Positions 17,823-61,412 of a stretch of DNA of 64,000 nt are shown here, in pieces (the first letter of the stretch is position 1; every line of letters starts with the position of its first letter). The stretch is from a virus. The position numbers and the translations under genes were made by a program. The stretch lies in the IMG/VR virus record IMGVR_UViG_3300044620_001243; one strand, 5' to 3'. The notes under the pieces were generated by a model. That model was not told the origin of the DNA. It saw nothing but the letters and a program-made list of their open reading frames with translations, and made no database searches.

Positions 17823-17872
17823 GGTGTAAATATACTTATTATACCTTATATTTAAAAAAAAATTAAAAAAAG

Positions 17873-18541
17873 ATGAAAATTAATCATCCATTATTAAAGT
17901 GTGAAGTGGTTGAAATTAAACCGAGAATTTTTGTTGTGACCGTTAAAAATGATTATGATAGGTCAATGTTGTTTTGTAGATACCAAGAATACTACGAGTC
18001 ACCACATTCAATGTTTTATCGTAAATTTTTTACATTAGAAGAATTTATGAAAATCTATTCCAAAAAAAGAAAAACATCATTTTTTTCATATCCTCTTGAT
18101 TGGATTGGATTTAATATTCCATCAGAAGTTTTAATCGAATCCCACAATTTATTTAAAAACTCTGGCAGTTTTTATGATGATATCATGGGTCAGATTATTT
18201 CTTTCTGTAAAAAAGAAATAAATGATGATAGTAAAAATTGGTATTTAATTGGTACGGATAAATTAAATTCTAAAATTTTAAAACATGAAATTTCACATGG
18301 TTTTTATTATACAAATGTAGACTATAAGAAAAATATGGATAAAATTATTAAAAAAATAGATAATGAAGACTTTCTTTTAATGAAAAAAAAATTGATTTTG
18401 ATGGGGTATCGAAATGAAAAGAAAATAATTTATGATGAAATACAAGCATACATGTCAAGTTATAAACTACCATCATGGAGTGATAATATTTATATGAAAT
18501 ATAGGTATGAATTTATTGAAGTTTTTGATATTTATAAATAA
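17873..18541 (+). CDS. hypothetical protein
   Basis: 222-aa ORF. Confidence 0.4.
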   Translation: MKINHPLLKCEVVEIKPRIFVVTVKNDYDRSMLFCRYQEYYESPHSMFYRKFFTLEEFMKIYSKKRKTSFFSYPLDWIGFNIPSEVLIESHNLFKNSGSFYDDIMGQIISFCKKEINDDSKNWYLIGTDKLNSKILKHEISHGFYYTNVDYKKNMDKIIKKIDNEDFLLMKKKLILMGYRNEKKIIYDEIQAYMSSYKLPSWSDNIYMKYRYEFIEVFDIYK

Positions 18542-18551
18542 ATATATTATT

Positions 18552-18722
18552 ATGAAACCTACAAAAGAACAAATTTTTGGAATGATAAGACACGGATTAA
18601 CATTTATTGGTGGTGTTTTAGTTATGAACGGATTAATAAATGAAGGAATGTCTCAAGAACTAATTGGCGGTTTAATGACATTTATTGGAACCGTTTGGTC
18701 GGTTTTTGATAAAAAAAAGTAA
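18552..18722 (+). CDS. putative holin (two TM helices, charged C-terminus)
   Basis: 56 aa (MKPTKEQ…LTFIGGVLVMNGLI…LIGGLMTFIGTVWSVFDKKK), immediately upstream of the M23 lysin. Confidence 0.4.
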   Translation: MKPTKEQIFGMIRHGLTFIGGVLVMNGLINEGMSQELIGGLMTFIGTVWSVFDKKK

Positions 18723-18731
18723 TTTTATTTA

Positions 18732-20066
18732 ATGAAAAAACTCACGATTGAAGAGGAAATCAAAAGATTTCATGAGATAACTTTTGGAAAAACATTTCTA
18801 CCAGAAGAAGATAGGGGTTTTTTAAGTAGACTTTTTGGGAAGAAAAAAATTGATGACCCCAAGAAAGCAGATTTCGTAACTGATGATGTTACTCAATTTT
18901 TTAAAACCATAGAAGATGCTTCGAATTCAGGGGGACTGAAACAGAGTGAAAAGGGTAGTATGAATTTTCAAAAAGAAGTTGAGTCAATGCAAATTGGTTT
19001 AAAATTATTAGACCCAACAGTTTTACCAAAATATGGGGTTGACGGTTTATATGGACCCGAAACGGCGGCGGCGGTTAAGAGTTTTGTTGAGAAAAATTTA
19101 AGTCAACAAAAAACAGTTAATGAAGTTGCACTATCTTCTCCGATTGGTGACACTGTTATTACATCACCATATGGACCAAGAAATGGAAAGACTCACCATG
19201 GTATCGATTTAAAAGCTGATTCAGGTACACCAATTAAGGCCCCATTGGATGGTCAAATCATTGACGCAGAAATAAGGGCAGATGCATGTGGAGGAACGAT
19301 TAGAATACAACACGCTGATGGATTAACAAGTAGATATTGTCATTGTAAACAAATTAATGTGAAAAATGGTCAATCAGTAAAAAAAGGAGAGATAATTGGT
19401 TTAACAGGTGGAGGTCAAGGTGATTCGGGAAAAGGTCGTTCTACTGGTCCACATTTACATTTTGAACTTTATAAAAATGGACAGATTGTAAACCCCGTAC
19501 AGTATTTAGGTTCAGAAGTTGGGGAGTTTACAGGGGTAAATAGTGGTGGTTTTATGTATAATGCGTCTCCTGAAATGTTGAGAAAACTATTGGAGATGTT
19601 GAAAGAAAGAGGAGTTAAATCTGAAGAATTAAAATCGTTTATTGATGTTGGTGTTACATTTGTTGGTGAAGTTACCGATAAAGCAGTTTATGAAAAAATA
19701 TTACAAGAATTGGGGGCACCAATTACAGATGAAAATATGAAATTTATGTTTGCTTGGAGACAAGCGGAAGGAAAAGGAGGAAAAAATAACCCATTTAATA
19801 CCACTCAAAATATGGCAGGTGCAACCAATTTTAATAGTGTTGGTGTTAAAAATTATTTAACAATATCGGACGGAGTTAATGCAACATTAAAAACCTTAAA
19901 AAATGGTCGATATAATTGTATCATAAATGGTTTACAACAAAATATTGGAGCAAGTGAAATTGCGAAATGTCAATCATTAAAAACTTGGGGAACGGGTGAT
20001 TTGGTTGCAACAGTATTGAACGGATATGATAGTGGGGCTAAACCAAAAATCTCAAGTCTTGCATAA
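18732..20066 (+). CDS. peptidase M23 with peptidoglycan-binding domain (putative endolysin/lysin)
   Basis: PG_binding_1-like segment (GVDGLYGPETAAAVKSF) plus the M23 motifs HHGIDL…D and GPHLHFE. Confidence 0.8.
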   Translation: MKKLTIEEEIKRFHEITFGKTFLPEEDRGFLSRLFGKKKIDDPKKADFVTDDVTQFFKTIEDASNSGGLKQSEKGSMNFQKEVESMQIGLKLLDPTVLPKYGVDGLYGPETAAAVKSFVEKNLSQQKTVNEVALSSPIGDTVITSPYGPRNGKTHHGIDLKADSGTPIKAPLDGQIIDAEIRADACGGTIRIQHADGLTSRYCHCKQINVKNGQSVKKGEIIGLTGGGQGDSGKGRSTGPHLHFELYKNGQIVNPVQYLGSEVGEFTGVNSGGFMYNASPEMLRKLLEMLKERGVKSEELKSFIDVGVTFVGEVTDKAVYEKILQELGAPITDENMKFMFAWRQAEGKGGKNNPFNTTQNMAGATNFNSVGVKNYLTISDGVNATLKTLKNGRYNCIINGLQQNIGASEIAKCQSLKTWGTGDLVATVLNGYDSGAKPKISSLA

Positions 20067-20373
20067 CATTTACTTTTTATAGTTATTATTTTATAATATA
20101 ATTAAAAAGTAAAAATATGAAAGATAAATGTGTTATATGTGGAAAAGAATCACCTTATGATATTACAACCAATGTAGATTATAGAATCGGTTACATTGAT
20201 GGAGGTGGTCAGGGTTGTTTTCAATCCGAAATTTGTAAAAAAACAATTTCAATTAATGAAGAATTAATTAAAGATACCCCAAATGATTTTGAATTGGGTG
20301 GTAAAGTTAGAGAATTATTTAATAAAATTAAATAATATCTAATTTTTAGATATTTATAATAAAAAAATATTTT

Positions 20374-22264: not shown

Positions 22265-22710
22265 AATAATAAATATTATACATTAAAAAAATGGCAAAAA
22301 AAGATATTGAAGCAAAACTAGTGAATGTTTTCAATCCTGAAAACGGTGATGAATTTGAAGTTTTTGTTACTTATGAATTCATAAACGATAATTTGTTGGA
22401 AGAAGATGAAGAAATCTACATGTACAATTATGGTTTCGACATAAAAAGTTATGTTTCATCCAACAATGAAGACGTACCCGAGTGGATGACCGAAGAAATG
22501 GTGTACCACTCATTAAGTGAGATTATTAATGATTCAATGATTGAAGATATGTTTTATGATGATGGAGACATTGACGATGCCGATGAAATTGAAGATTATG
22601 ATGACGATTTAAATTTCTCCGAATCTGATGATGAGGATGATTGGTAAAAATTTGTTATCCATTTTGATTTTTAATGTTTTTTTTATATATTTGTTTTATA
22701 ATCGACAAAT

Positions 22711-30542: not shown

Positions 30543-30568
30543 ATCGGTAAAATTTTACCGATTTTTTG
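30543..30568 (+). terminator. rho-independent terminator
   Basis: ATCGGTAAAA/TTTTACCGAT palindrome followed by T6, after the nitrilase-family gene. Confidence 0.7.
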
Positions 30569-30623
30569 GTTTTTACGAAAAAAACCACTATATTTGACTG
30601 TAATTTGAAAATTAAAAAACGTT

Positions 30624-33972: not shown

Positions 33973-34452
33973 TTGTGGAAAATACCAATGGAATCAAGTA
34001 ATTCAAAACAAAGACCTATGAAACAATACTTAGAGTGGCTTGAAAAACAAATTGACTTTTATTTAGAGGATAAAACGATGCAAAGAGAACATTGGGCTTT
34101 TTGTAAGGCATACGAGAAGTTCAAAAGCCTTGAAACGACCGCTGAATCAGAAGAACTCACACCCTACATTGAATACTACTCCAACGGAAATGTATCTATT
34201 AAAGGACAATTGAACTCCAAAGGACAAGAAGAAGGTCTTTGGGAGTGGTTCTATCCAAACGGAAACATCGAATGGAGAACCCCATACAAGGAGGGTAAGA
34301 TGGATGGAATTGAGGAGCGGTTTGATAAACAAGGAAACATCAAATGGAGAATCCCATACAAAGAGGGAAGGAGGATGGGATTGAGGAGGAATTTGATGAA
34401 CGAGGAAACATCACCGAAACCCATATTTGGAAAGATGGAGAACTAATTGAAT
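33973..34452 (+). CDS. YwqK/MORN-variant repeat protein (3' frameshift)
   Basis: Repeats YxNGNIEWRTPYKEGKxDGIEE. The reading frame breaks near 34367 relative to the paralogs (gagggaagg versus gagggtaagg). The other frame continues …KEGKEDGIEEEFDERGNITETHIWKDGELIE*. Confidence 0.45.
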
Positions 34453-37006: not shown

Positions 37007-38032
37007 ATGAAAAAACTAGAATTAACAAAAGACGAATTGGAAAAACTTTATTATCTCCCCCCAAAGGATGTTGAGAAAGAAACAGAATTCCAAATAACCT
37101 ATCGAATGGGTAGAAACTCATTAGTGTTGGAGTTGATAAAAAAGATAGATGAGGAACTCACACCCTACATTGAATACCACGACAACGGAAATGTGTGGAT
37201 TAAAGGACAAGAGAACTCCGTAGGACAACGAGAAGGCATTTGGGAGTATTTCTGGGTGAACGGAAACATCGAAAGGAGAATCCCTTTTAAAGAGGGTAAG
37301 GTGGACGGTATTCAGGAGGTTTTCTATCCAAACGGGAACATCGATTTTAGAACCCCATTCAAAGATGGTAATATGGATGGAATTCAGGAGTGGTTTGATG
37401 AACAAGGAAACATCACCAAAACCACTCTATGGAAAAATGGTGAAGTAATTGAAGAAACTGAACCCGAACTCACACCATACGTTGAATACCACGACAACGG
37501 AAATGTAGCGGTAAAAGGACAAAAGAACTCCGTAGGACAGGAAGAAGGTATTTGGGAGTTCTTCTATTCAAACGGAAATATCCAATATTCAAACGGAAAT
37601 ATCCAATGTAGAACCCCATACAAAGAGGGTAAGGCGGATGGTATTCAGGAGGTTTTCTATGAAAGCGGAAACATCCATTGGAGAACCCCATACAAAGAGG
37701 GTAAGAGGGATGGAATTGAGGAGTGGTTCTATGAAAACGGAAACATCGAATGGAGAACCCCATACAAGGAGGGTAAGATGGATGGAATTGAGGAGCGGTT
37801 TGATAAACAAGGAAACATCAAATGGAGAATCCCATACAAAGAGGGAAAACTGATTGAAGAAACTAAACCCAAACCACAACCTGACCCACAACTAATTGAT
37901 TTTATGGCAATGAGATACAGACATGACTTTGGGTTTTTGGATGAAAAACACAAAGAATCCATCAGAATAACAATGAAACAACTTTGGGAAGAAGTTGTTG
38001 GTCTTGGATTTTATAAACCAAAATCAAAATAA
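37007..38032 (+). CDS. YwqK/MORN-variant repeat protein
   Basis: At least eight repeats of NGNI(E/H)WRTPYKEGKxDGIxE. A 3' block is nucleotide-identical to 34141-34360. Confidence 0.6.
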   Translation: MKKLELTKDELEKLYYLPPKDVEKETEFQITYRMGRNSLVLELIKKIDEELTPYIEYHDNGNVWIKGQENSVGQREGIWEYFWVNGNIERRIPFKEGKVDGIQEVFYPNGNIDFRTPFKDGNMDGIQEWFDEQGNITKTTLWKNGEVIEETEPELTPYVEYHDNGNVAVKGQKNSVGQEEGIWEFFYSNGNIQYSNGNIQCRTPYKEGKADGIQEVFYESGNIHWRTPYKEGKRDGIEEWFYENGNIEWRTPYKEGKMDGIEERFDKQGNIKWRIPYKEGKLIEETKPKPQPDPQLIDFMAMRYRHDFGFLDEKHKESIRITMKQLWEEVVGLGFYKPKSK

Positions 38033-38380
38033 TGAAATATGAATAAAATTAAATTTTACAGGGATTCTCATAGCATTTCCCGAGATATGTATGAACATAT
38101 TAATGACCCATCTTTGGTAGATGAATTAGATAAATGGGAATCGGTTCGATATAGAATGAGTGATGAAGGAATTGAATATTGTTTTAAACATTATTCTACT
38201 TTTAGTGAAATTGAAGATGAACAATTCCATTCAAAACGTGAAAAACTAATTGAACTGATGGTAGACATAGAAGAATATGTCCAAAATAAAATCACAGAAA
38301 TAAAAGACGAAATAACCAAACTAACAGAAGATGAATAAAATCGAAAAAGCAATTTACGACACAAAACTCCATATTGAAAA

Positions 38381-38418
38381 GTTGGAAAATCAAAATTTAC
38401 TTCGTATATTTACACCAT
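38381..38418 (+). promoter_or_regulatory. Bacteroidetes-type promoter (TTGG-N20-TATATTTA; extended TTCGTATATTTACACCAT)
   Basis: The -7 box TAnnTTTG-like at 38405-38412, 19-25 nt upstream of ATG 38431. Confidence 0.5.
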
Positions 38419-38670
38419 AATTAAATCTCTATGAAATACATTCTCCACAAAACACTCATACTTGTCATGTTTGCATTATTTTGCTCCGAAGTATTGAAAA
38501 TATGCTTCGGATTAATGAACCAACCATCCACACTTCAATTCCTAACGGGCGTTGCAGTACTGATGACAGGAATTTATGGTTCTTTTTACTTTGTAAAATG
38601 GCTTATCAATTACCCAACTTCAAAAACCAAAAATAACTCTCAAAATCAAAACAATTAAAAAACAAAAAAA

Positions 38671-39525
38671 ATGAATCAGAAAAACTTAATTATTCTCGGA
38701 GTTGCCGCCTTTATCTTAGGCCTCTTCTCTATGACCAGCTGTGAAATAATCGACGCTGGTCACGTTGGTGTTAAAGTCAATCTTTACGGCGACGGAAAAG
38801 GTATTGACGATGTGACCGAAGTCAATGGCAGGGTATTCTACAACCCCTTTACCACAAAAATTGTTGAATTTCCAACTTTTATCCAGCACAAAGAATACAA
38901 ACACAACGGAGAAGACAATCCCGATGAATCTTTTGTGGTCAACTCAAAAGATGGGTCAGAGTTTCATGTATCTCCATTATTGAACTATTCAGTCAAGAGG
39001 GAAAGAGTTCCTTATATTTTCGGTAAGTACCGAGTTACTCTGGATGAAATCGAATCTGGTTTCTTAAAAACAGCAGTCTATGATGCCTTTCGTGTTGTCG
39101 CAAATTCATACACCGCAGATGAATTGATTTCAAATCGTGAACAGTTCGAAGTAAAGGTTCGTAAGGTTTTGGTAACCCATCTCTTACCCGAAGGATTCAT
39201 ACTAGCACAATTTACATCTAATCTTGTCTATCCCGAAACATTCAAGAAAGCCATTGAAGCTAAGAACAATGCGGTTCAATCAGCACTCACCGCAGAGAAC
39301 AGAGTAAAACAAGCGGAGGCCGAGGCAAAAATCAAAATTGCACAAGCCGAAGGTAATGCTCAAGCAATGCTGACTTCGGCCAAGGCAGAAGCGGAGTCAA
39401 ACAGGATGAAACAACAAACCATTACACCTATGCTTCTACAACTTGAGTACATCAAGAAATGGAACGGAGTTGAACCCACAACACAATTGTGTTCAGGGTC
39501 AAATATGATGTATAACATAAAATAG
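38671..39525 (+). CDS. SPFH/band-7 (prohibitin-like) lipoprotein
   Basis: Lipoprotein signal (…FSMTSC), a band-7 core and an Ala/Glu-rich coiled-coil C-terminus. Confidence 0.7.
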   Translation: MNQKNLIILGVAAFILGLFSMTSCEIIDAGHVGVKVNLYGDGKGIDDVTEVNGRVFYNPFTTKIVEFPTFIQHKEYKHNGEDNPDESFVVNSKDGSEFHVSPLLNYSVKRERVPYIFGKYRVTLDEIESGFLKTAVYDAFRVVANSYTADELISNREQFEVKVRKVLVTHLLPEGFILAQFTSNLVYPETFKKAIEAKNNAVQSALTAENRVKQAEAEAKIKIAQAEGNAQAMLTSAKAEAESNRMKQQTITPMLLQLEYIKKWNGVEPTTQLCSGSNMMYNIK

Positions 39526-39550
39526 AAATTAAAAGAGAAATGTTTAAAGA

Positions 39551-39577
39551 GGGAAGAATTGTCTTCCCTTTTTTTTG
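39551..39577 (+). terminator. rho-independent terminator
   Basis: GGGAAGA-ATTG-TCTTCCC hairpin followed by T9. Confidence 0.8.
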
Positions 39578-39613
39578 TTTGGTATTTTAAAATTTATTTC
39601 GTATATTTACACT
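39578..39613 (+). promoter_or_regulatory. Bacteroidetes-type promoter (TTTG-N20-TATATTTA; extended TTCGTATATTTACACTAT)
   Basis: Sits just after the terminator and just before ATG 39614. Confidence 0.5.
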
Positions 39614-40333
39614 ATGAAAACCGTATTCATCGGCGATATTCACGGACGTTCCATTTGGAAAGAAATTGTAGAACAGGAAAAACCTGATAGGGTTATTTTT
39701 GTCGGAGACTATTTCGACTCACTTGATATTCCAGGTATTGACCAAATTCATAATTTTAAAGAAATCATTCACCACAAAAAAACAAGTGGAATTGAGGTTG
39801 TACTGTTGGTAGGTAATCACGATTATCATTATATGGATATGGGTGAAACTTACAGTGGATTTCAACCTGCTCTAAAATTTGATATTGGGCAGTTACTCAA
39901 AGAAAATATGGAACATTTACAAATGGCACATTCATTTGATAATTTCCTTTGCACCCACGCTGGTGTATCTTCGGTGTTTATGAATGATAATTTTAGAGAT
40001 AGTTGGGATTGCGATAATTTAGTTGAAAAACTGAATGAAACATTTAAATATTCTCCATTCATTTTTAAGTTCAATGGTTTTAATCCATATGGGGATAATG
40101 AAACACAATCACCTATTTGGATTAGGTTGAATTCATTGAGAAGTTCAAATAACAAACGAGGTAAAGATGGAATTAAAAAGCAATTTATTCAAGTGTTTGG
40201 ACACACCCAAGTTAAAGAAATTGATTTGGTTGGAATGGCGAAATTTTTAGGTGGTAGATATATTATGATTGATGCTTTACCATCCCGTCAATACCTAATT
40301 TACAATGGAGAAATTAAAGTAGGAAAAGTGTAA
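39614..40333 (+). CDS. Ser/Thr protein phosphatase-family metallophosphoesterase
   Basis: VFIGDIHGR, FVGDYFD and GNHD. Start moved to the ATG at 39614, downstream of the promoter box. Confidence 0.7.
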   Translation: MKTVFIGDIHGRSIWKEIVEQEKPDRVIFVGDYFDSLDIPGIDQIHNFKEIIHHKKTSGIEVVLLVGNHDYHYMDMGETYSGFQPALKFDIGQLLKENMEHLQMAHSFDNFLCTHAGVSSVFMNDNFRDSWDCDNLVEKLNETFKYSPFIFKFNGFNPYGDNETQSPIWIRLNSLRSSNNKRGKDGIKKQFIQVFGHTQVKEIDLVGMAKFLGGRYIMIDALPSRQYLIYNGEIKVGKV

Positions 40334-41393
40334 GAAAATGAAAGATTTGATATACGTTAAAGACCCAAAACTAAGTGCCATACCGATTACAAAATTAATG
40401 AAATTAGTTTACGAGTTTATCCCAATAGAACAAAGAGAAGAATTTTTATCTGAATATAAAAAATTATATATGGAATCGTTACAAGACTTACAAAAATCAT
40501 ATGAATATGGACTTAATGAAAAAATACATAACGAATAAAAAAATAGTTATTATTGTTTCAGTAATAATTCTTCAAATACTCTTCGGTTTTGACCCCAAAT
40601 TCACATTTATAAATCTCATCTGGTTACTTTTTTAATATGAACAACAAATTAATATCCACATCAAATTATCTCTATTTGGTAGACGATTCAATAATAAACA
40701 ATGGTGATTATGTTTTTAACATTGAGGCTAAAATTGTGTGTGATTATAATTCTGATTTTAATGTAAACAAATCTTCTCTAAAAAAGATAATCGCCCATTT
40801 ACCATTGAAAGAAGATTCGTTTTATTTAAAAAAATTAAAATTACTTCCAAAATTAGATATGAACCTAATGCCAAATAAATTTATCTGTGAAACAGATTCA
40901 TCAGGTAAACCAGTAATTAAGGTTGACGAAAAAAATAGACCTATTTTGGTTGGAAAATACGAATATTGATGAAAAATTTATTATACGGCATTTTCTTAAT
41001 GGTTATTGCACAAATTTTAACTTTTTATCAAATACAAGGTCCACTTAAAATTGCGTTTTTTAAAAACAATTATTGGTTTGCCATTTTGATGGGTATTCCT
41101 TTATCGATTTTATATGTGGAGTCAGTTAAACAAATTGTAACATATTATGATGGTTTAGTGTGGCCAGGTAGATTAATTGGTTTTGGTGTTGGTGTGATTG
41201 TCTTTGGGATTTTTTCCTATTATGTGTTTAATGAAACATTAACCACAAAAACATTATTGTGTCTTTTACTGTCTTTAGGGATTATAGCTATTCAACTTTT
41301 TTGGAAATGATAGAATATTCAGATGTGATTGTCGATTTACATATGATATATAATTTATTTAATGAAAAATTTGGTTTTTTGAATTTTATTGCG

Positions 41394-41401
41394 TATATTT
41401 G
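41394..41401 (+). promoter_or_regulatory. -7 box TATATTTG
   Basis: 19 nt upstream of the lipoprotein minigene ATG. Confidence 0.4.
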
Positions 41402-41420
41402 AATCATAAAAAAAACACTT

Positions 41421-42300: not shown

Positions 42301-42711
42301 ATGAAAAAACTGTTCACATTTTTATTCTTAATGATTATTTCCATTGTTTCATATGGTCAAAAACCAATGGTTGGTTTTACGGAAGACGATATTAAAACAT
42401 ATAATAGAATTCAAAATGAAACGTTTTTTTGGGATAAAATTTATGAATCAAATATATGGTGTCTTTGGACAAAACACCAAACTCTTGATTTAATGAGCTT
42501 TTATGTTTTTGAATATGGTAAAAATAAAAACACCATGTTTGTAAACGCCACAAAAGATGATGAACTTGCTTTAATTATTTTAGATAAAATAAGAGAAGAT
42601 TGTGTTTTTTTAGGTAATGATAGGTACTTTAACAAAGACAATGGTTTGACAGTAAAATGTGAGTACAACCAAAGTGAGAAATCATTCATGTTTAAGTGGT
42701 GTTTTGAATAG
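42301..42711 (+). CDS. secreted hypothetical protein
   Basis: N-terminal signal peptide. 136 aa. Confidence 0.4.
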   Translation: MKKLFTFLFLMIISIVSYGQKPMVGFTEDDIKTYNRIQNETFFWDKIYESNIWCLWTKHQTLDLMSFYVFEYGKNKNTMFVNATKDDELALIILDKIREDCVFLGNDRYFNKDNGLTVKCEYNQSEKSFMFKWCFE

Positions 42712-44411: not shown

Positions 44412-44603
44412 GAAATACCACGGTTTATTGGATAAAATTATGCAACCAAAAGAATCAAAAACAAATACCCATTTTCAATTAAGTTTGATAAAATCTCTTT
44501 TAAGGATATTAGGATGTATTTATCTATTCTTTGGGTGTACAAGTATGTTTGTAATTATTTTCATATTTGCAGAAATTCTTGGAATTTTAGAAGAAATTTT
44601 GTA

Positions 44604-44627
44604 GTTTGAATTTTTTTTCGTATATTT
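44604..44627 (+). promoter_or_regulatory. promoter box TTTG…CGTATATTTG upstream of tRNA-Met
   Basis: An exact TAnnTTTG -7 consensus. Confidence 0.45.
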
Positions 44628-44653
44628 GTATTCTGAATATGAAAATAAACAAT

Positions 44654-44791: not shown

Positions 44792-44901
44792 AGTCAGGTG
44801 GCGGAATTGGTAGACGCAAGTGAGAATAGTAATTGCGCTGATGTAGCGGCAGATGCAGTAAGTTATTATTCATACAGGTTCGAGTCCTGTCCTGACTACC
44901 A
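44792..44901 (+). tRNA. tRNA-like unit 1 (Leu-type scaffold, 56-nt variable core, CCA encoded)
   Basis: 5' AGTCAGGTGGCGGAATTGGTAGACGC … ACAGGTTCGAGTCCTGTCCTGACTACCA 3'. Acceptor strands are complementary. No canonical anticodon arm was found. Confidence 0.5.
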
Positions 44902-44992
44902 AAGAAACAAGTAAAACGCAAACGCACAGTCCCTTGATGCATCAGGTGAGGCGCACACTGTATACTGGATGACCTCTGTTTCTTTTTTAATC
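44902..44992 (+). repeat. 91-nt spacer, identical copy at 45370-45460
   Basis: Exact duplicate following the two CCA-encoding units 1 and 3. It contains an AGAAACA…TGTTTCT helix followed by a T-run (terminator-like). Confidence 0.7.
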
Positions 44993-45101
44993 AGTCAGGT
45001 GGCGGAATTGGATAGACGCATTGAGGAATCTAAACTTGGTAGCATTTGTTAGATTTAATAGTAATCCTCCTTCCTTACAGGTTCGACTCCTGTCCTGACT
45101 A
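44993..45101 (+). tRNA. tRNA-like unit 2 (variable core 57 nt)
   Basis: Same conserved flanks. The core has a GAGGA…TCCTC stem enclosing 37 nt. Confidence 0.5.
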
Positions 45102-45267
45102 CGACAGTTAGCAGATAATACTTGGTAGTTCTTGTAACGTCTGACTATGCGTGAGGTGGTTTTATAACTTTCCACCAGCTGGTCCAAAACTAAAAGTTAA
45201 TACAGGTTTAATAACGGGGTGAAGGAAAGTCTAACTAACAAGTACTTCACTACCTACTGTAAAAATT

Positions 45268-45369
45268 AGTCAGGTGACGAAATTGGTAGACGTGCCACGA
45301 ATAAAACTAAGTGGTGGAGAAACAGCTTTCAGGCACTCCATACAGGTTCGAGTCCTGTCCTGACTACCA
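45268..45369 (+). tRNA. tRNA-like unit 3 (CCA encoded; compensatory D-stem A10:T25)
   Basis: D-stem ACG/CGT versus GCG/CGC in the other units. Followed by the same 91-nt spacer as unit 1. Confidence 0.5.
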
Positions 45370-45460
45370 AAGAAACAAGTAAAACGCAAACGCACAGTCC
45401 CTTGATGCATCAGGTGAGGCGCACACTGTATACTGGATGACCTCTGTTTCTTTTTTAATC

Positions 45461-45558
45461 AGTCAGGTGGCGGAATGGTAGACGCACTGGACAGGCGATG
45501 CATTTAAAACAGAAATAAGCCCAGTCGGTACTTACAGGTTCGAATCCTGTCCTGACTA
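45461..45558 (+). tRNA. tRNA-like unit 4
   Basis: Conserved flanks. The core has an ACTGG…CCAGT stem with a 30-nt loop. Confidence 0.5.
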
Positions 45559-45926
45559 CAAATCTTAGGAGTAATTAACCTAAGACTGAGAGGTTCGAAA
45601 CTCTCGATTGGCTATGGTGTAATGGGCACAGAGAAACGGAGTACGAAAGGGGTTACGGGAATTTTCCCGCAAACATCAGAAACGGGACTCAGGATTATGG
45701 TTCGAATCCATATTAGTCAACAAGCCGTCTTTTTTTCTTGTCCGCCGTGGACGTGGATTGTTGAGACGTAAAAGTAACAATCGATTGATTAGAGAACGGT
45801 AGGATACAGGTTCACTAGACGAAGGTAGAAGTTTTTTTTTGATAGATGGGTTTGAGTTCTTTATAACAACAAACCAACTATAATTCAGTAGGGACAAATG
45901 GGAGCGGCTTACTCCAGTCCCGAAAT

Positions 45927-46085
45927 AGTCAGGTGGCGGAATTGGTAGACGCTATGAAATCATGTTTTAAGATTGAACGGGTAGGCAGACGTAACATATA
46001 GGTAAAAGAGTGTTATCGCCGAATACACTTATAAGGGTCCTATGAAAAAACTTCAATCATACAGGTTCAAGTCCTGTCCTGACTA
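45927..46085 (+). tRNA. tRNA-like unit 5 (110-nt core)
   Basis: Conserved flanks with T-arm ACAGGTTCAAGTCCTGT. The very long core suggests an insertion or intron. Confidence 0.45.
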
Positions 46086-46328
46086 CACGTTCCGAAACAG
46101 ACAACGGATAGTTCCACTATGAACGATGAGAAACAGGGTGATGTCCTGTATTAGTTATCGCCTCCCGAATGCGGTCGGGATAGGTTGACCACCTAAACAT
46201 CAGCAATGTGAACGGTCTATTTCTAACTCACCTACGTTTGTAAGACAACATAGAAGTGACGAGACGGGAAACTCGTCGTGAGGACATCCAAGACACCTGT
46301 AAGTTGGATAAATTAGGGTGTTATTTTT

Positions 46329-46451
46329 AGTCAGGTGTGGGTAAAAATGCGCTAACTGGAAACCCACTGAAAGCGAAAGCAAAGTCGAGGTCTAAATGCG
46401 CACTATGGCCGAGGTAATGGCGAGATACAGGTTCAAGTCCTGTCCTGACTA
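46329..46451 (+). tRNA. tRNA-like unit 6 (altered D region)
   Basis: Acceptor AGTCAGG/CCTGACT and T-arm conserved. The D region is replaced by TGGG…CCCA. Confidence 0.4.
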
Positions 46452-46596
46452 CAAAGACAATGGTTTTCCCCATTCAACGGATGTCGACAATCCAGAATGG
46501 AATCGGAATTCAGCACCCTCAGCCGAGGCGCCTCGTAAAACTACGATTAAGCTGTTAAGATTGGAGCGAGACGGGTACTCCATCATTGTCTTATTT

Positions 46597-46668
46597 GGTC
46601 GGTTCATCTAGAGGTTAGGATACAAGATTTTCATTCTTGTCACATGGGTTCGATTCCCATACCGACTA
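46597..46668 (+). tRNA. tRNA-Glu (TTC)
   Basis: Clean cloverleaf. Acceptor GGTCGGT/ACCGACT, D GGAT-loop-ATCT, anticodon stem CAAGA/TCTTG with loop TTTTCAT, T-arm ATGGG-TTCGATT-CCCAT. 72 nt. Confidence 0.8.
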
Positions 46669-46833
46669 CCTTGGAGGTATAGGGGTAAACCCTTGAGGCG
46701 AAGTACAAGCCATAGTCACTGAACTTAAACTGACCTCCAACCAAATTAGAAGTGTCGCAATACGCGTTTCAATCTAATTGATAGACGTATCAATGAAGAT
46801 GTTCGAGGGTGAAAATCCCAAGCTTCTAATCCT

Positions 46834-46938
46834 CCATTCTTAGTGTTATGTGGTTAAAACACGTTAACTCTTACATCGCCTGATTAGCGCTAATCCGAAT
46901 GTAAGACGAGTAAGTTGGTTCGAATCCAACAGAATGGA
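46834..46938 (+). tRNA. tRNA-like gene with distinct acceptor (CCATTCT/AGAATGG), canonical D and T arms, and a 26-nt insertion inside a TCTTAC/GTAAGA helix (possible intron-containing tRNA)
   Basis: D-arm GTGT-loop-ACAC and T-arm GTTGG-TTCGAAT-CCAAC. The core is too long for a type I tRNA and the anticodon is unresolved. Confidence 0.45.
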
Positions 46939-47216
46939 CAATGAGTAAGAGATACTCAGAGTCTTTGGTCTAAGACTTAAACAATAGACTCGCAGAATGT
47001 CTACGGCGTGAGTGGGACATCATGGGAACAAAGAAGAGTCACACACCTTCTCCCAGTAGTGTTGACAGGTTTTTATGTGGTAAGACACTAATGAAAAAGA
47101 CTCGTTCTATGGGGTACTTATCTGGAGTATCAAACAAGTGTGAGTGATATGGTTCTCGAACAGACAGAGAAACCCGTTAAAATCTACCCGTCTGGAATCT
47201 CAGGATGGGGAAACAT

Positions 47217-47319
47217 AGTCAGGTGGCGGAGTGGGCTAACGCTAACTTGGAAGAGTCTGAGGAGTGGTAACCAAGTACCTATACTCTGATGACCGCAGGT
47301 TCGAATCCTGTCCTGACTA
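47217..47319 (+). tRNA. tRNA-like unit 7
   Basis: Conserved flanks (D-loop variant AGTGGGCTAA, T-stem GCAGG). The core has a CTTGG…CCAAG stem. Confidence 0.45.
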
Positions 47320-47337
47320 CAAAAATAAATTAAAATT

Positions 47338-47598
47338 ATGTTTATAGAAAGATTTTTTAACCCCTATGTGTCATCTCACGAAAGGGTATTATATGAGAAT
47401 AAAGAAGCAATTGAACATTGTTTGAAATATCATACATGGATTAGACATTATTCATTTGAAGGTGATGAATATATCAAAAATGTTAATGGTAAATTAGTTT
47501 GGAATGATGGTAGTAAAGTTGATAAAAGAAAATTACCTAAAAAAGGAAAAGGATGGGGCAGATATTCAAGTGAACTTTATAATTTGTGTTCTTTTTAA
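47338..47598 (+). CDS. small hypothetical protein embedded in tRNA island
   Basis: 86-aa ORF that exactly fills the gap between units 7 and 8. Confidence 0.35.
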   Translation: MFIERFFNPYVSSHERVLYENKEAIEHCLKYHTWIRHYSFEGDEYIKNVNGKLVWNDGSKVDKRKLPKKGKGWGRYSSELYNLCSF

Positions 47599-47605
47599 AT
47601 TAAAT

Positions 47606-47751
47606 AGTCAGGTGGCGGAATTGGTTAGACGCTGTAAAAGTAAGATATGGGAATTGTGCACTCGGTAAACCTACGCACAAGGCTTAGATAGTTGTGCAAC
47701 AGCGGAAAGTCTTACAAAACTATCTTACAGGTTCGAATCCTGTCCTGACTG
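47606..47751 (+). tRNA. tRNA-like unit 8 (95-nt core closed by 8-bp GTAAGATA/TATCTTAC helix; discriminator G)
   Basis: Conserved flanks. The self-contained closing helix suggests an inserted element or intron. Confidence 0.45.
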
Positions 47752-47906
47752 CAAAATTAAAGATATGTTTAGAACATTAAATTATATTTGGAAATTGTTT
47801 TGGAAAAGACCTAGTAGAAGAGTATTTTTTATATTTTTTAGAATGCTAAAAACGGAAATTAAGTGTTTAATGTTGACTGGATACTCAACAGATGAATTAC
47901 TAAATT

Positions 47907-48033
47907 AGTCAGGTGGCGGAATTGGTAGACGCACGATTTATTGTTTAACGATGTGGCTCAATGTCCTAATGGATGAGAGAAAATAAACAGAGAAATATAC
48001 CACATACAGGTTCGAATCCTGTCCTGACTACCA
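47907..48033 (+). tRNA. tRNA-like unit 9 (CCA encoded)
   Basis: Conserved flanks with a 73-nt core. Confidence 0.45.
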
Positions 48034-48085
48034 AGTTAACCCACTAAGACTAGAAACGGGTGACACCTCGGAAAGACGAGGACAT

Positions 48086-48170
48086 AGTCAGGTGGCGGAA
48101 TGGATAGACGCGGCCCTATCAGGGGTAGAGGCGAAAGAAACTCATACAGGTTCGAATCCTGTCCTGACTA
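48086..48170 (+). tRNA. tRNA-like unit 10 (85 nt, type-II length)
   Basis: Conserved flanks. The 34-nt core forms CCCT-ATC-AGGG and GAG…CTC minihairpins but no 7-nt anticodon loop. Confidence 0.45.
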
Positions 48171-48278
48171 CACAGTGTTGGCTTCAAGGACCTATTAGGG
48201 AAGTACACTTAAATAAAACAAGAACGGGGAAAACACCGAATCTGCAGATAACGGCGAAGTACCAACGAAAGGTGAAAC

Positions 48279-48820: not shown

Positions 48821-49001
48821 TCAATGGAAAAGAAGTGACCAAGTTTACTTTAATAAAATTTTTGAATTTTTTTGGAATTCTCATTTCTTTTAGTTATATT
48901 TGTATCATATTCGTTCTTTGAAATATTAAAAATGTAATTAATACCATTAACACTTATAAATACCCTTTCTATAACGATATAAATAATTTATAGATATTTA
49001 T

Positions 49002-53524: not shown

Positions 53525-54256
53525 ATGGATAAAGATAAATTAAAAAATATCATTACCAGAATTGGTCAAATAAATCCAAAATATGAATTGGAAAATATTC
53601 TGCCTCAATCGCCAAAATTAATTAAATTAATGCCTAAATTAATTCAACTCATGGGTGACCCATTAGAAGATGCTCAATTGGCTGCAGTTAAAAAAGATGG
53701 TTTAACAATCGAATATATCGTTAAAGGTGGAATCACCCCATCAGAAGATGTTCAATTGGCTGCAGTTAACGAAAATGGTTATGCAATCCAATATATCATT
53801 AATGGTGGAATCGTCCCATCAGAAGGTGTTCAATTGGCTGCAGTTAACAAAAAGGGTTATGCAATCTCAAATATCATTAAAGGTGGAATCGTCCCATCAG
53901 AAGATGTTCAATTGGCCGCAGTTAACGAAGAGGGTTATGCAATAGGATATATCATTGATGGTGGAATCGTCCCATCAGAAGGTGTTCAATTGGCCGCAGT
54001 TAATAATAATGGTTATGCAATCCAACATATCATTAATGGTGGAATCGTTCCATCAGAAGGTGTTCAATTGGCCGCAGTTAACAAAAAGGGTTTATCAATC
54101 GAATATATCATTGATGCCGGAATCATTCCATCAGAAGATGTTCAATTTGGAGCAGTTAATTATAATGGTTTATCAATCCAATATATCATTGATGCTGGAA
54201 TCACCCCATCAGAACGTGTAAAAGAACTTGCTCGTTCCAAGGGTGTTCAAATATAA
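53525..54256 (+). CDS. DUF4116-like repeat protein (paralog 1 of 3)
   Basis: N-terminus MDKDKLKNIITRIGQINPKYELENI, then about eight 24-aa repeats (GI(T/V)PSEDVQLAAVNxNGYAIQYII). C-terminus SERVKELARSKGV. Confidence 0.5.
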   Translation: MDKDKLKNIITRIGQINPKYELENILPQSPKLIKLMPKLIQLMGDPLEDAQLAAVKKDGLTIEYIVKGGITPSEDVQLAAVNENGYAIQYIINGGIVPSEGVQLAAVNKKGYAISNIIKGGIVPSEDVQLAAVNEEGYAIGYIIDGGIVPSEGVQLAAVNNNGYAIQHIINGGIVPSEGVQLAAVNKKGLSIEYIIDAGIIPSEDVQFGAVNYNGLSIQYIIDAGITPSERVKELARSKGVQI

Positions 54257-54261
54257 ATAAC

Positions 54262-54897
54262 ATGGATAAAGATAAATTAAAAAATATCATTACCAGAATT
54301 GGTCAAATAAATCCAAAATATGAATTGGAAAATATTCTGCCCCAATCACCAAAATTAATTCAATTCATGGATAATCCATCAGAAGATGTTCAATTGGCCG
54401 CAGTTAAAAAAGATGGTTTAACAATCTATTATATCATTGAAGCCGGAATCGTCCCATCTGAAGATGTTCAATTGGCTGCAGTTAATAATAATGGTTCATC
54501 AATCTATCAAATCATATATGATGCTGGAATCACCCCATCAGAAGATGTTCAATTGGTTGCAGTTAAAAAAGTGGGCGACTTAATCTATGATATCATTAAA
54601 GTCGGAATAACCCCATCAGAAGATGTTCAATTGGCTGCGGTTAATAATAATGGTTCATCAATAGGATATATCATTAACGGTGGAATCACCCCATCAGAAG
54701 ATGTTCAATTGGCCGCTGCTAATCAAAATGGTAGGGTAATCCAATATATCATTAAAGCTGGAATCACCCCATCAGAAGATGTTCAATTGGCCGCAGTTAA
54801 TAATAATGGTTATGCAATCCAACATATCATTAACGCCCGAATCACCCCATCAGAACGTGTAAAAGAACTTGCTCGTTCCAAGGGTGTTAATATATAA
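54262..54897 (+). CDS. DUF4116-like repeat protein (paralog 2)
   Basis: The first 100 or so nt are nearly identical to paralog 1. Same repeat and C-terminal block. Confidence 0.5.
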   Translation: MDKDKLKNIITRIGQINPKYELENILPQSPKLIQFMDNPSEDVQLAAVKKDGLTIYYIIEAGIVPSEDVQLAAVNNNGSSIYQIIYDAGITPSEDVQLVAVKKVGDLIYDIIKVGITPSEDVQLAAVNNNGSSIGYIINGGITPSEDVQLAAANQNGRVIQYIIKAGITPSEDVQLAAVNNNGYAIQHIINARITPSERVKELARSKGVNI

Positions 54898-54902
54898 GTT
54901 AT

Positions 54903-55616
54903 ATGGATAAAGATAAATTAAAAAATATCATTACCAGAATTGGTCAAATAAATCCAAAATATGAATTGGAAAATATTGTGCAGCAAGCGCCACAATTAAT
55001 TCAATTCATGGATAATCCATCTGAAGAAATTCAATTGGCCGCGGTTGAAAAAGATGGTAAATATATAAAAAATATTATTGAAAGTGGAATCAAACCATCA
55101 GAAGATGTTCAATGGACAGCTGTTAATCAAGGTGGTCAGTCACTTTATTTTATCCTTGAAGCCGGAATCGTCCCATCTGAAGATGTTCAGTTGGCAGCGG
55201 TTAGAAGTAGAGGTTCGGCAATCCAATTTATCATTGAAGCTGGAATCATTCCATCAGAAGATGTTCAATGGTTTGCGGTTAACGAAAATGGTTATGTAAT
55301 CCAAGATATCATTGATGCCGGAATCACCCCATCAGAACGTGTTCAATTGGCCACAGTTAATTATAATGGTTTGTTAATCAAATATATCATTGATGTCGGA
55401 ATCACCCCATCAGAACGTGTTCAATTGGCTGCTGTTAATCAAAATGGTTTGTCAATCAAAGATATCATTGAAGCCGGAATCGTCCCATCTGAAGATGTTC
55501 AGTTGACTGCAGTTAGAAGTAGAGGTTCGGCAATCCAATTTATCATTTATAATGGTGGAATCAAACCATCAGAACGTGTAAAAGAACTTGCTCGTTCCAA
55601 GGGTATTAATATATAA
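54903..55616 (+). CDS. DUF4116-like repeat protein (paralog 3)
   Basis: Same N- and C-terminal blocks, with the repeats more diverged. Confidence 0.5.
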   Translation: MDKDKLKNIITRIGQINPKYELENIVQQAPQLIQFMDNPSEEIQLAAVEKDGKYIKNIIESGIKPSEDVQWTAVNQGGQSLYFILEAGIVPSEDVQLAAVRSRGSAIQFIIEAGIIPSEDVQWFAVNENGYVIQDIIDAGITPSERVQLATVNYNGLLIKYIIDVGITPSERVQLAAVNQNGLSIKDIIEAGIVPSEDVQLTAVRSRGSAIQFIIYNGGIKPSERVKELARSKGINI

Positions 55617-57467: not shown

Positions 57468-58595
57468 ATGAGACACGAAAAATTGATTGAAAAACATTTA
57501 GGTATTAACACACCTGATTGGGTTAAAGAAAAAGTAAATAATGCCATAGATGAAGCACTTGGTTATAATTTGAAAAAATCTGAAGAACTCACACCATACA
57601 TTGAATACTACTCCAACGGAAATGTACTTGTCAAAGGACAAAAGAACTCCAAAGGACAAGAAGAAGGTCTTTGGGAGTGGTTCTATAAAAACGGAAACAT
57701 CCGTATGAGAATCCCATACAAAGAGGGTAAGGAAGATGGAATTGAGGAGGTTTTCTATGAAAACGGAAACATCAGTATGAGAATCCCATACAAGGAGGGT
57801 AAGATGGATGGAATTCGGGAGTGGTTTGATAAACAATGGAACATCAAAGCAAGAATCCCATTCAAAGAGGGTAAGGAGGATGGAATTGCGGAGTGGTTTG
57901 ATGAACAGGGAAACATCACCGAAACCCGTGTATGTAAAAATGGTGAAGTAATTGAAATAACTAAACCCGAACTCACACCCCACATCGAATACTACTCCAA
58001 CGGGAACGTAAGGGTCAAAGGACAAAGGAATTCCAAAGGACAACGAGAAGGTATTTGGGAGTGGTTTTTTGAGAACGGAAACATCCTATGTAGAACCCCG
58101 TACAAAGAGGGTAATATGGATGGTATTGAGGAGTTGTTCTATGAAAACGGAAACACCAAATGGAGAATCCCATACAAAAATGGCGTGGAGGATGGAGTTC
58201 AGGAGTGTTTTGATGAACAGGGAAACATCACCGCGACCAGTCATTGGAAAGATGGTGAAGTAATTGAAGAAACTAAACCCGAACTCACACCCCACATTGA
58301 ATACTACCCCAACGGAAATGTATGGTTCAAAGGTCAAAAGAACTCCAAAGGACAACGAGAGGGGATTTGGGAGATTTTTTGGATGAACGGAAACATCGAA
58401 TGGAGAACTTCTTACAAAGAGGGTAAGGAGGATGGTATTGATGAGGGGTTCTATTCAGACGGAAACATCCGTTGTAGAACCCCATACAAAGAGGGTAAGG
58501 AGGATGGAATTGAGGAGCGGTTTGATGAACAAGGAAACATCACCGAAACCCGTCATTGGAAAGACGGGGAAATAATTGAAGAAACTAAACACTAA
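57468..58595 (+). CDS. YwqK/MORN-variant repeat protein
   Basis: 375 aa with at least 12 repeats. Paralog of 37007..38032 and 33973..34452. Confidence 0.6.
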   Translation: MRHEKLIEKHLGINTPDWVKEKVNNAIDEALGYNLKKSEELTPYIEYYSNGNVLVKGQKNSKGQEEGLWEWFYKNGNIRMRIPYKEGKEDGIEEVFYENGNISMRIPYKEGKMDGIREWFDKQWNIKARIPFKEGKEDGIAEWFDEQGNITETRVCKNGEVIEITKPELTPHIEYYSNGNVRVKGQRNSKGQREGIWEWFFENGNILCRTPYKEGNMDGIEELFYENGNTKWRIPYKNGVEDGVQECFDEQGNITATSHWKDGEVIEETKPELTPHIEYYPNGNVWFKGQKNSKGQREGIWEIFWMNGNIEWRTSYKEGKEDGIDEGFYSDGNIRCRTPYKEGKEDGIEERFDEQGNITETRHWKDGEIIEETKH

Positions 58596-59222: not shown

Positions 59223-59570
59223 ATTAAAAATTATGCAAAATTTAATCTCAACCGAATTATACGAAGTAACCGAAAAACTTTACAGAGATATGAACCCAAA
59301 TGGCAGGATGTCAGAACCACCGAGTAGTGTCTATGTTACTGTTATTGAAAAGTGGTATCCCGAATACCGGCAATCAAATTCCGAATTGAGTTTCTACGAA
59401 TGGTGTAAAAAAAATAAAAGTAATTAAATATGATAGGACTTATTATTTTCGGATTGTTGATTTTTTGGATTATTATAACGGAAGGAAATATTTTTCTTCG
59501 CGATAATGACGATGATTGGGACGGAACAAATCAAAGTATAGATTTGTGATTATTTTCAAAAATAATTTTT

Positions 59571-59608
59571 TTTTTTGAACTTGTAGTTAGTATATTTACA
59601 CCATCAAA
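59571..59608 (+). promoter_or_regulatory. promoter box (AGTATATTTACACCAT)
   Basis: Third copy of the extended motif, upstream of ATG 59621. Confidence 0.45.
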
Positions 59609-60239
59609 TCAAGATTAAAAATGTACGAAGCAAAATACGTAATCGTTGAAGGGAGTGGAATCATCTTTTCCGCAGCAATCCAACACAAAGACATGGTTGG
59701 TTATAATGAAAAATGCGAAGGTGCTGGGTTCGTAAGGTTTGCCGTTGAAAAAGATAGCTACGGCGATGACATCATCGTTGCCCAATGCTACGGCGAGTCC
59801 ATTTCATTGGGTATCGAATCTCGACCAGAAAAAGATTCAAAAATTCTAACGCGTCAAATCACCAATCCTTTTTGAATGTAAAACTAAAAAATATTAAAAC
59901 GATGATAACAATTTCAACTCTATTCATTTTGCTGTACTCATACAGTCTGTATAAAATTAGAAAAGACTCTGGGTCTTGGAAAGAATTCGACCCATTTGGG
60001 AGTAGTCTATTTGTCTCGTTGGTATTCATATTCGGTACATCAGCAATCATAGTATGTGTGTTAGGAATTCTAGGTTATGTGGTACAAAATAATTTAATAC
60101 CCTAAATAATACAAAACATGAAAAAAGAAAAAACATATTTTGATGGAATTATAGTAGGGTTTGGTATAACTTTTATACTTTATTCAATCTTGTTAGGTTA
60201 TATCATTTCAATCTTAACACCATAAAACTCTTCAACCAC

Positions 60240-61222: not shown

Positions 61223-61412
61223 TCGAATCCTGACTGCAAATCAAATCAACTAAAAACAAAACAAATGAAAAATAAGTTAAAAACAATTTGGCATGATTTT
61301 TGGACTGACCCCCTATACTACATTGTAATTATGTCGTATATTGGTTTGCTTTTAATTATGTTAATAGTTAGTGTGGCTTGGTTTATCCAACCTTTAATAA
61401 AATAACAAAACA

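Follow-up and report, generated by a model that had tools for sequence, protein, structure and literature searches.

The 64,000-nucleotide (nt) stretch of viral DNA analysed here, from IMG/VR virus record IMGVR_UViG_3300044620_001243 and referred to below as the window, carries a repeated sequence, GTATATTTACAC, directly in front of several of its genes. We regard these repeats as probable promoters for the Bacteroidota-type primary sigma factor of the host, which act as portable modules in the accessory region of a large uncultured phage. This reading is carried by their architecture, enrichment, orientation and conservation, by their modular behaviour and by the junctions at which they lie. 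Exact copies of GTATATTTACAC occur four times, at 38404, 39601 and 59590 on the plus strand and at 17835 on the minus strand, all sense-oriented and 4-30 nt 5' of the start of an open reading frame (ORF). This position, with each copy in the sense direction and just upstream of an ORF, is a stronger argument than the multiplicity of any k-mer.

A preliminary description of the region 38381-39613 had proposed three copies of an extended promoter, at 38401, 39598 and 59589, with more than 16 identical nucleotides. The three sites are present, but a further exact copy, the fourth, had been missed on the minus strand (17835-17821, GTATATTTACACCATG), and the extent of identity holds for the first pair only, and then with one mismatch allowed. 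At 38401-38415 and 39598-39612 the sequence TTCGTATATTTACAC is identical over 15 nt; the match between the two extends to 17 of 18 positions through (C/T)AT and to 25 of 27 when 38392-38418 is compared with 39589-39615. The third copy, (A)GTATATTTACACCAT at 59589-59604, shares 15 nt with 38404-38418, so that GTATATTTACAC plus AT is common to all three. Looser members, also overlooked previously, are found at 63394-63430, 63923-63954 and 41370-41406, and the upstream half GGAAAATCAAAATTTA is common to those at 63397 and 63926. The shorter TAnnTTTG boxes noted earlier before tRNA-Met (44621), the 41421 gene (41394) and the 43431 gene (43400) are where they had been placed. The formula TTTG-N20- gave the right distance of 20 nt between TTTG and the -7 box, but as written its spacing is imprecise; the corrected geometry is TT(T/G)GG, 19 nt, then TATATTTA.

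Bayley et al. 2000 and Vingadassalom et al. 2005 are said to have described primary-sigma (sigma-A Bfr type) promoters with a -33 TTTG and a -7 TAnnTTTG. The -7 element of the Bacteroidota sigma-A type is TAnnTTTG (TAHHTTTG) (Baez et al. 2019, PMC6847099). In Flavobacterium johnsoniae this box spans T-12 to G-5, with T-12, A-11, T-8, T-7, T-6 and G-5 nearly invariant, and transcription starts 4-5 nt downstream (PMC6847099). The -33/-7 architecture that had been suggested for the repeats is indeed present, with departures at -5 and, in some copies, at -33, and it is strongly enriched in sense intergenic DNA. T-12, A-11, T-8, T-7 and T-6 occur in every copy, whereas position -5 is A in the four exact copies and at 63418, and the canonical G at 3932, 22686, 30589, 33793, 41394, 44621 (before tRNA-Met), 48895, 56236 and 63947. 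Several of the G-5 promoters share TCG or GCG directly 5' of the box. The -33 element is TTTGG at 39578, 19 nt from its box, and again at 41370, with degenerate forms at 38381 (GTTGG) and 63394 (TTCGG).

Every copy has an A 4 nt past the box, and 83% of the TATATTTG sites in phage loci retrieved through protein homology show an A exactly at +1. The predicted +1 is accordingly placed at the A of CCAT in TATATTTA-CACC-A. On this model the holoenzyme would recognise two elements 19 nt apart, the -33 TTTGG and an extended -7 element of the form T(C/T)G-TATATTTA, and transcription would begin at the A of CACC-A-T. The predicted leaders measure 13 nt (gene at 38431) and 18 nt (59621), while the mRNAs starting at 39614 and 17822 would have none, their +1 being the A of the ATG; both arrangements would suit translation initiation free of Shine-Dalgarno sequences.

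Comparison with randomized sequence supports the two-box pattern. With at most one mismatch, GTATATTTACAC is found four times versus 0.73 expected from dinucleotide shuffles, and a Markov-3 model predicts 0.017 occurrences of the exact 12-mer and 0.0008 of the 15-mer. The window holds nine TTTG-N19-21-TATATTTR sites (0.66 expected), eight of them on the gene strand. For TTG-N18-21-TAnnTTTG in intergenic DNA, ten sites are sense and none antisense, with 0.5 expected under a Markov model of intergenic composition. Intergenic DNA makes up 7% of the window and contains 14 of the 20 plus-strand TATATTTR sites. The motif is thus significantly enriched over a shuffled or Markov AT-rich background, the comparison on which the preliminary description had let its claim depend, and this is so on the sense intergenic strand only. 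A generic test of 12-mer multiplicity is uninformative in AT-rich DNA, some 12-mer being present at least four times in 40 of 60 Markov-3 simulated windows, so the motif-specific expectation and the orientation were used instead.

A scan for Escherichia coli-type -35/-10 promoters returned 43 sites versus 42 expected, which indicates that this is not a -35/-10 system. A promoter for an extracytoplasmic function (ECF) sigma factor (..AAC-N16-CGT..) misfits in spacing. Iterons, an origin, a packaging site and an attachment site were considered and rejected, as the copies are dispersed over 46 kb and tied to ORF starts by orientation and distance. In Rfam, tRNAs alone reach threshold in the window, and none overlaps a promoter.

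The elements are also retained in diverged relatives (cited below by L numbers). The metallophosphatase gene (39614-40333), used as query, retrieved 24 IMG/VR loci at 42-95% amino acid (aa) identity. Upstream of orthologues at 95, 77 and 74% identity the element is kept, while sequence farther upstream is often unrelated; the 74% clade shows the leaderless form TATATTTA-AGT-ATG, that is, the box followed by three or four nucleotides and ATG. A nucleotide profile (nhmmer) built on the relatives alone recovers the window sites at 38370-38416 (E=2.9e-8) and 39577-39614 (E=1e-5) and, more weakly, those at 41362-41400 (E=0.0032) and 63392-63429 (E=0.011). For the endonuclease V-like gene that follows the minus-strand copy, 80 loci were compared. 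The arrangement box-N4-ATG persists in more than 25 different upstream contexts, with variation at the free box positions and in the spacer, which is good evidence for a functional box and for a selected leaderless geometry. The 15-nt identity seen at this gene in the window matches the other promoters of the window and was not inherited with the gene, which points to within-genome homogenisation or module exchange. Distant endonuclease V-like homologues in L227, L228 and L230 are preceded by TTGACT/TTGACA-N17-TATAAT, not by -33/-7 elements. The promoter type thus appears to track the presumed host phylum, TTGACT..TATAAT being what would be expected for phages of other phyla. Among more distant relatives, L022 contains four copies of TTTGCGGAGAAGAAATAAAAAACTATATTTGCAGAACATTAAT within 15651-20170, and L023 several TATCTTTGACCTATTGTTAAAC sites within 11286-14629. 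Such near-identical promoter families of their own indicate that these phages generally keep their promoter copies highly alike.

Relatives differ extensively in gene order, and the promoters move with some independence of the genes they precede. The 44-nt module at 38382-38425 is identical to positions 3076-3119 of L007. Its partner is the 75-aa membrane protein gene in the window, the metallophosphatase gene in L001-L004 and L006, and an unrelated gene (MEKIIL) in L007. A 128-aa ORF that is intact in L007 breaks off in the window behind codon 19, precisely at TTGGAA, from which point the promoter module takes over; this makes the odd GTTGG at 38381 a recombination junction. The window and L259/L008 have the module in front of 59621, but L255-L258 lack it before a 94-96% identical gene, and the promoter before 3968 is absent at the orthologous gene in L001 and L007. 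An exact 50-nt repeat with arms at 63375-63424 and 63904-63953 ends inside the -7 box, beyond which the copies diverge; the promoter at 63904-63954 has an orthologous counterpart in L001 and L007. Past the 63947 promoter, the leader 63955-63990 contains an inverted repeat (GTTAGAAATAG...TTGTTTCTAAC), and the gene downstream runs off the end of the window. Multiple copies per genome are found in the window, in relatives and in many other viral contigs, with up to six in 8 kb. The long identities are more readily understood if the promoter modules are portable and shared and lie at recombination junctions.

Stem-loops accompany part of the copies. Strong ones, directly 5' of their promoters, lie at 39546-39573 and 30545-30596 and weak ones at 59549 and 17883, whereas 38381 has none. 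The one at 39546-39573 is kept in L005, L007 and L008, and its T-run continues into the -33 element of the next promoter; at 59549-59576 an AT hairpin with a T-run lies 5' of the 59590 half-site. In a broad sample, the region around the -33 element is more structured than shuffled sequence (-8.4 versus -5.6 kcal/mol, P=6e-7). The copies probably derive from one portable promoter or promoter-plus-leader module, some carrying an upstream terminator, that marks the borders of small accessory-gene cassettes. Recombination in or next to these modules would then insert, delete and re-partner genes, as in the promoter-early stem-loops (PeSLs) of T4-type phages, and the genes served are, by analogy, probably early genes.

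Beyond the relatives, the long form TTGG-N17-19-GTATATTTACACCAT occurs at 26 distinct sites in the viral collection, up to four of them on one 412-kb contig. The majority look like promoters, followed by an A-rich leader and by an ATG at a distance of 0-35 nt. A scan of 596 Gb of cellular genomes gave 15 matches, with about 13 expected by a hand estimate that assumes uniform base composition, and a single promoter-like match, in Flavobacterium cellulosilyticum; the viral and cellular counts are raw and not normalised for promoter number or taxon. At this chance level we rejected the exact long motif as a common promoter of host genomes. The 412-kb IMG/VR contigs L033, L042 and L173 carry several exact extended promoters that are followed by a Shine-Dalgarno-like AAGGAG, unlike those of the window. 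The wider form TTTGG-N17-19-GTATATTTA is found at no fewer than 135 distinct, mostly promoter-like sites in at least 120 viral loci, and several contigs have 3-6 copies each. The idea that CACCAT is an optimal start site in general was discarded, since not one of the 135 wider-class sites among the matches listed has it after the box. The extended, phage-specific promoter class proposed earlier therefore survives as a phage-enriched consensus, but the CAC(C/T)AT extension does not define it (0 of 135 sampled sites); this tail is lineage-specific. The part that defines the class is TTTGG-N19-T(C/T)GTATATTTA with A at -5, which is common in viral contigs.

An ORF starts within 60 nt of 131 of the 185 class sites, at offsets with one maximum at 3-4 nt (leaderless) and another at 14-30 nt, and the median downstream ORF encodes 114 aa. 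Shared ancestry of the motif-bearing contigs was rejected: in the short flanks examined, tblastn of the window proteins matches 2 of 35 loci, indicating that the motif is not simply inherited with this phage lineage. Intergenic echoes occur in cultured Flavobacteriia phages, namely Tenacibaculum phage PTm1 (TACATTTGCACCATAATTAAAAACAA) and Chryseobacterium MA9V phages. A full-text literature search for the motif string gave no relevant paper, literature searches on Bacteroidetes or Cellulophaga phage promoters gave nothing specific, and no promoter consensus for this phage group turned up in the searchable open literature.

The identity of position -5 bears on which polymerase reads these promoters. 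The sites with A at -5 (TTTGG-N19-TCGTATATTTA) might form a phage-specific temporal class that is read only by a host polymerase reprogrammed by a phage factor, be it a phage sigma or, in the manner of T4 middle promoters, a sigma appropriator with an activator. The TATATTTG sites would then be the true early promoters. The replacement of a nearly invariant G by A, the coexistence of both classes within the same genomes and the very regular extra G of TTTGG fit this idea. So do the contrast between chance-level occurrence of the exact 19-base form in 596 Gb of cellular DNA and its 26 sites in a much smaller viral collection, and the sigma-70 region 2 protein encoded by a cultured Chryseobacterium phage with a partial echo of the motif. 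We nevertheless consider such a class, the main alternative, unlikely. Spacing, box and the A at +1 agree exactly with host promoters, G and A at -5 are swapped freely at the same position among orthologous endonuclease V-like promoters, and hybrids of the form TTCG-TATATTTG (41394, 44621) let the two classes grade into each other. In a sample collected by protein homology, A-5 sites are not enriched (26% versus 28% background), whereas G-5 sites are (46% versus 18%). Neither a sigma factor nor an appropriator was found among the roughly 40 window ORFs scanned. A broader form of the same idea is likewise doubtful, namely that TTTGG-N19-T(C/T)GTATATTTA with A at -5 is a near virus-only class common to many unrelated Flavobacteriia phages and dependent on phage reprogramming or a phage sigma factor, with modules that double as recombination cassettes shuffling accessory and counter-defence genes.

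The conservation past the box hints at a second possibility, in which the promoter itself is ordinary and the sequence beyond it (CACCATAATTAAA...) is the functional core, a DNA operator or a 5'-leader translational operator for a phage regulator, comparable to T4 RegA acting on early mRNAs. The tail CA(C/T)CATAATTAAA(A)ACA does recur, behind A-5 as well as G-5 boxes; it is seen in PTm1 and in contigs whose examined stretches have no detectable gene in common with the window, and the conservation reaches past the needs of sigma contacts. Yet the mRNAs from two of the four exact window copies would lack a leader, with the ATG at +1, and the tail is missing from all 135 sampled wider-class sites. 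The sequence forms neither a palindrome nor a structure, no candidate for the regulator was found, and an AU-rich leader is favoured anyway by Shine-Dalgarno-less Bacteroidota translation (PMC6847099), so that an operator function appears improbable. That the repeats are non-regulatory, being chance recurrences or inert scars of duplication or mobile elements, is very hard to believe even though AT-rich genomes yield recurrent k-mers and some copies belong to longer duplications, given the low 12-mer expectation, the sense placement of every copy just 5' of an ORF (the lone minus-strand copy included), the confinement of the two-box pattern to the sense strand of intergenic DNA, and the conservation of the element across diverged relatives whose flanks are not conserved.

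Several points weigh against promoters of the host sigma-A type that act as portable modules. For two of the four exact copies (boxes at 59591 and 17834) a -33 TTG is absent at the right spacing, where T-runs are found instead. With A in place of the nearly invariant G-5, recognition by unmodified host sigma-A would not be guaranteed. As the genome is probably much larger than the 64-kb window, a sigma appropriator or a sigma factor of the phage could be encoded outside it; neither a sigma factor nor an RNA polymerase was found among the approximately 40 ORFs scanned. The partial motif echo in Chryseobacterium phage MA9V-2 comes from a phage that encodes a 'sigma-70 region 2' protein. Recombination at the modules is judged from a handful of junctions, not from a genome-wide statistic, and the module does not always include a stem-loop. 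Genes were called as crude ORF picks, and we infer the sigma factor, start site, leaderless translation, strength and timing from the DNA.

The host phylum had earlier been assigned to Bacteroidota from the promoter type, and independent lines support this assignment. A Shine-Dalgarno core (GGAG or GAGG in -20..-4) precedes just 1 of 98 window genes, whose start regions are A-rich and G-poor, and A-rich translation starts that lack a Shine-Dalgarno sequence are known from Bacteroidota (PMC6847099). The best cultured helicase matches come from Bacteroides and Chryseobacterium phages. Cultured homologues and motif echoes together point to phages of Bacteroides, Chryseobacterium, Tenacibaculum and Flavobacterium. 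Since the scarcity of Shine-Dalgarno sequences, the helicase matches and the promoter type agree, a Bacteroidota host is supported, and it probably belongs within Flavobacteriia. The phage itself is distant from cultured ones. The 7.5-kb region around 38381-39613 has no DNA match among the INPHARED cultured phages, and the closest cultured homologues reach 37% (helicase) and 45% (endonuclease V-like) protein identity.

The window (~31% GC, AT-rich, phage-like, with nearly all ORFs on the plus strand) contains accessory functions only; no structural genes were seen among the roughly 40 ORFs scanned. It encodes a DNA methylase, a glutamine-synthetase-like protein, a thymidylate synthase, a UvrD-type helicase, a T4 Rnl1-like RNA ligase, the endonuclease V-like glycosylase, an SPFH protein, several metallophosphatases, sugar-modification enzymes and tRNA arrays. 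Also within this accessory region, ORF 8527-9099 matches Pfam Tad3, a type I Thoeris inhibitor (E=6e-38), and thus represents a counter-defence gene. The promoters and associated features are collected in Table 1. The motif copy that abuts the ATG at 17822 serves the only minus-strand gene nearby (17361-17822), which encodes a pyrimidine-dimer glycosylase (endonuclease V-like) and for which a leaderless mRNA is predicted.

Table 1. Promoters, terminator-like structures and related features of the window
Feature	Position	Strand	Sequence elements	Context
Promoter module	38381-38430	+	-33 GTTGG 38381-38385; -7 TATATTTA 38405-38412; predicted +1 A38417; leader ATAATTAAATCTCT	Before ORF 38431-38658 (75-aa membrane protein), then SPFH/Band-7 gene 38671-39525
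29-aa remnant ORF	38331-38420	+		5' end of a 128-aa gene intact in L007
Terminator-like stem-loop	39546-39573	+	GGGAAGAattgTCTTCCC plus T-run; -12.7 to -15.3 kcal/mol	Ends SPFH transcription unit
Promoter	39578-39614	+	-33 TTTGG 39578-39582; -7 TATATTTA 39602-39609; predicted +1 A39614 (A of ATG)	Before metallophosphatase gene 39614-40333; predicted leaderless
Promoter half-site	59590-59620	+	GTATATTTACACCAT; -7 box 59591-59598; predicted +1 A59603	Before ORF 59621-59875
Fourth exact copy	17821-17835	-	GTATATTTACACCATG; -7 box 17834-17827	Predicted +1 = A of ATG 17822
Degenerate member	63375-63449	+	-33 TTCGG 63394-63398; -7 TATATTTA 63418-63425; then GGCCATAATTAAAC	Before ORF 63450-63638
Second arm of 50-nt repeat	63904-63953 (site 63904-63954)	+	-7 TATATTTG 63947-63954
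Related promoter	41370-41420	+	TTTGG-N20-(GCG)TATATTTG-aatc-A	Before ORF 41421
Canonical promoter	44598-44628	+	TTTG-N19-(TCG)TATATTTG	25 nt 5' of tRNA-Met (44654) and first tRNA-like array
Terminator/promoter composite	30545-30596	+	Stem-loop ATCGGTAAAATTTTACCGAT with T-run (-14.8 kcal/mol), TTTGG, second stem-loop in spacer, TATATTTG	Before ORF 30624
Canonical promoter	3909-3939	+	TTTG-N19-TATATTTG	Before ORF 3968
Canonical promoter	22663-22693	+	TTTG-N19-TATATTTG	Before aminotransferase gene 22711
Canonical promoter	48871-48902	+	TTTGG-N20-TATATTTG	Upstream of sugar-modification operon starting at 49002

A further site, at 42449-42481 on the minus strand, shows a perfect TTTGG-N-TATATTTG arrangement with an internal stem-loop (GGTGTTTTGTCCAAAGACACC) inside the plus-strand ORF 42301-42711, and may be an antisense promoter/terminator composite. 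On the plus strand, 44792-48171 and 61412-63029 hold about 15 copies of a tRNA-like scaffold in units of 75-121 nt with a hypervariable centre. They have in common an acceptor stem GTCAGGT...CCTGAC followed by TAC, a D arm GGCGGAATTGGTAGACGC and a T arm ACAGGTTCGAATCCTGT. ARAGORN calls just six tRNAs in the window, some with odd anticodons, and the Rfam tRNA model gives ten sites, several of 98-124 nt. The copies could be a diversified paralogous tRNA array or a tRNA-scaffolded RNA family, and this array may be more unusual than the promoters.

Repeats of other kinds are found within coding sequence. The 443-aa ORF 13894-15225 contains about 68 tandem 18-nt units at 14022-15221 (consensus ACCTGTTGTAGAAGAAAC) and encodes an acidic repeat protein of the Pro-Val-Val-Glu-Glu type. 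One repeat-protein family is built of 72-nt (24-aa) repeats (ORFs 33973-34446, 37007-38032 and 57468-58595), and a second of 78-nt (26-aa) repeats (ORFs at 53525-55616). The sequence ATAAAACAATAGAAAGTTATGA occurs four times (4542, 5283, 5566 and 5843) at junctions of small genes where the stop overlaps the next start, and AAAGTTATG and AAAGGTTATG also precede many start codons in other viral loci; junction sequences of the ATAAAACAATAGAAAGTTATGA type may represent a preferred translation-start context.

The analysis provides a usable promoter model, with predicted starts and leaderless genes, for a large group of uncultured Bacteroidota phages, and it supports the assignment of a host phylum from sequence. 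It leaves the understanding of phage transcription unchanged, the elements being of an ordinary kind. They resemble Bacteroidota sigma-A promoters in the T-A-n-n-T-T-T core and, where a -33 is present, in two elements 19-20 nt apart, the AT-rich turns of the spacer, the A at +1 4 nt past the box, the sense intergenic location and the A-rich starts that lack a Shine-Dalgarno sequence. They depart from these promoters in the A that replaces G-5 in the extended copies, in a regular TTTGG where the -33 is otherwise weak, and in a conserved T(C/T)G directly 5' of the box. Copy-to-copy identity, at 15-44 nt, is far higher than among host promoters, and the exact long form is at chance in cellular genomes.

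The early promoters of phage T4 are extended-consensus early promoters of a virulent phage. Like these, the window elements occur in many near-identical copies with similarity beyond the sigma-contact hexamers and would use host holoenzyme, but the sigma family is a different one; the comparison is made from sequence alone. Morons are promoter-gene-terminator units, defined in temperate phages and expressed from the prophage. The endonuclease V-like gene (17361-17822), on the opposite strand with its own promoter, and the unit at 38431-39573, with a promoter, two genes and a terminator, resemble them as autonomous inserted units, although nothing in the window indicates lysogeny.

The PeSLs of T4-type phages, the nearest counterparts of these elements, are mobile cassettes of an early promoter and a stem-loop (Arbiol et al. 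2010, PMC2839356; Comeau et al. 2014, PMC4122927). Similarly, the elements described here are repeated host-sigma-type promoters in a hyperplastic accessory region, mostly before small genes of unknown function and in part joined to a terminator-like stem-loop, and junctions of indels or replacements between close relatives fall at the motifs, in few cases here and judged from sequence only. In contrast to PeSLs, their architecture is the Bacteroidota -33/-7 and not -35/-10, a Shine-Dalgarno sequence at the 3' end is lacking, some units are leaderless, and the stem-loop is found at only some copies. The elements can thus be placed with host-type phage promoter families and with PeSL-like cassettes, both of them known, and they suggest that the mobile promoter-cassette mechanism of T4-type phages of Proteobacteria also operates in Bacteroidota phages, with another sigma architecture.

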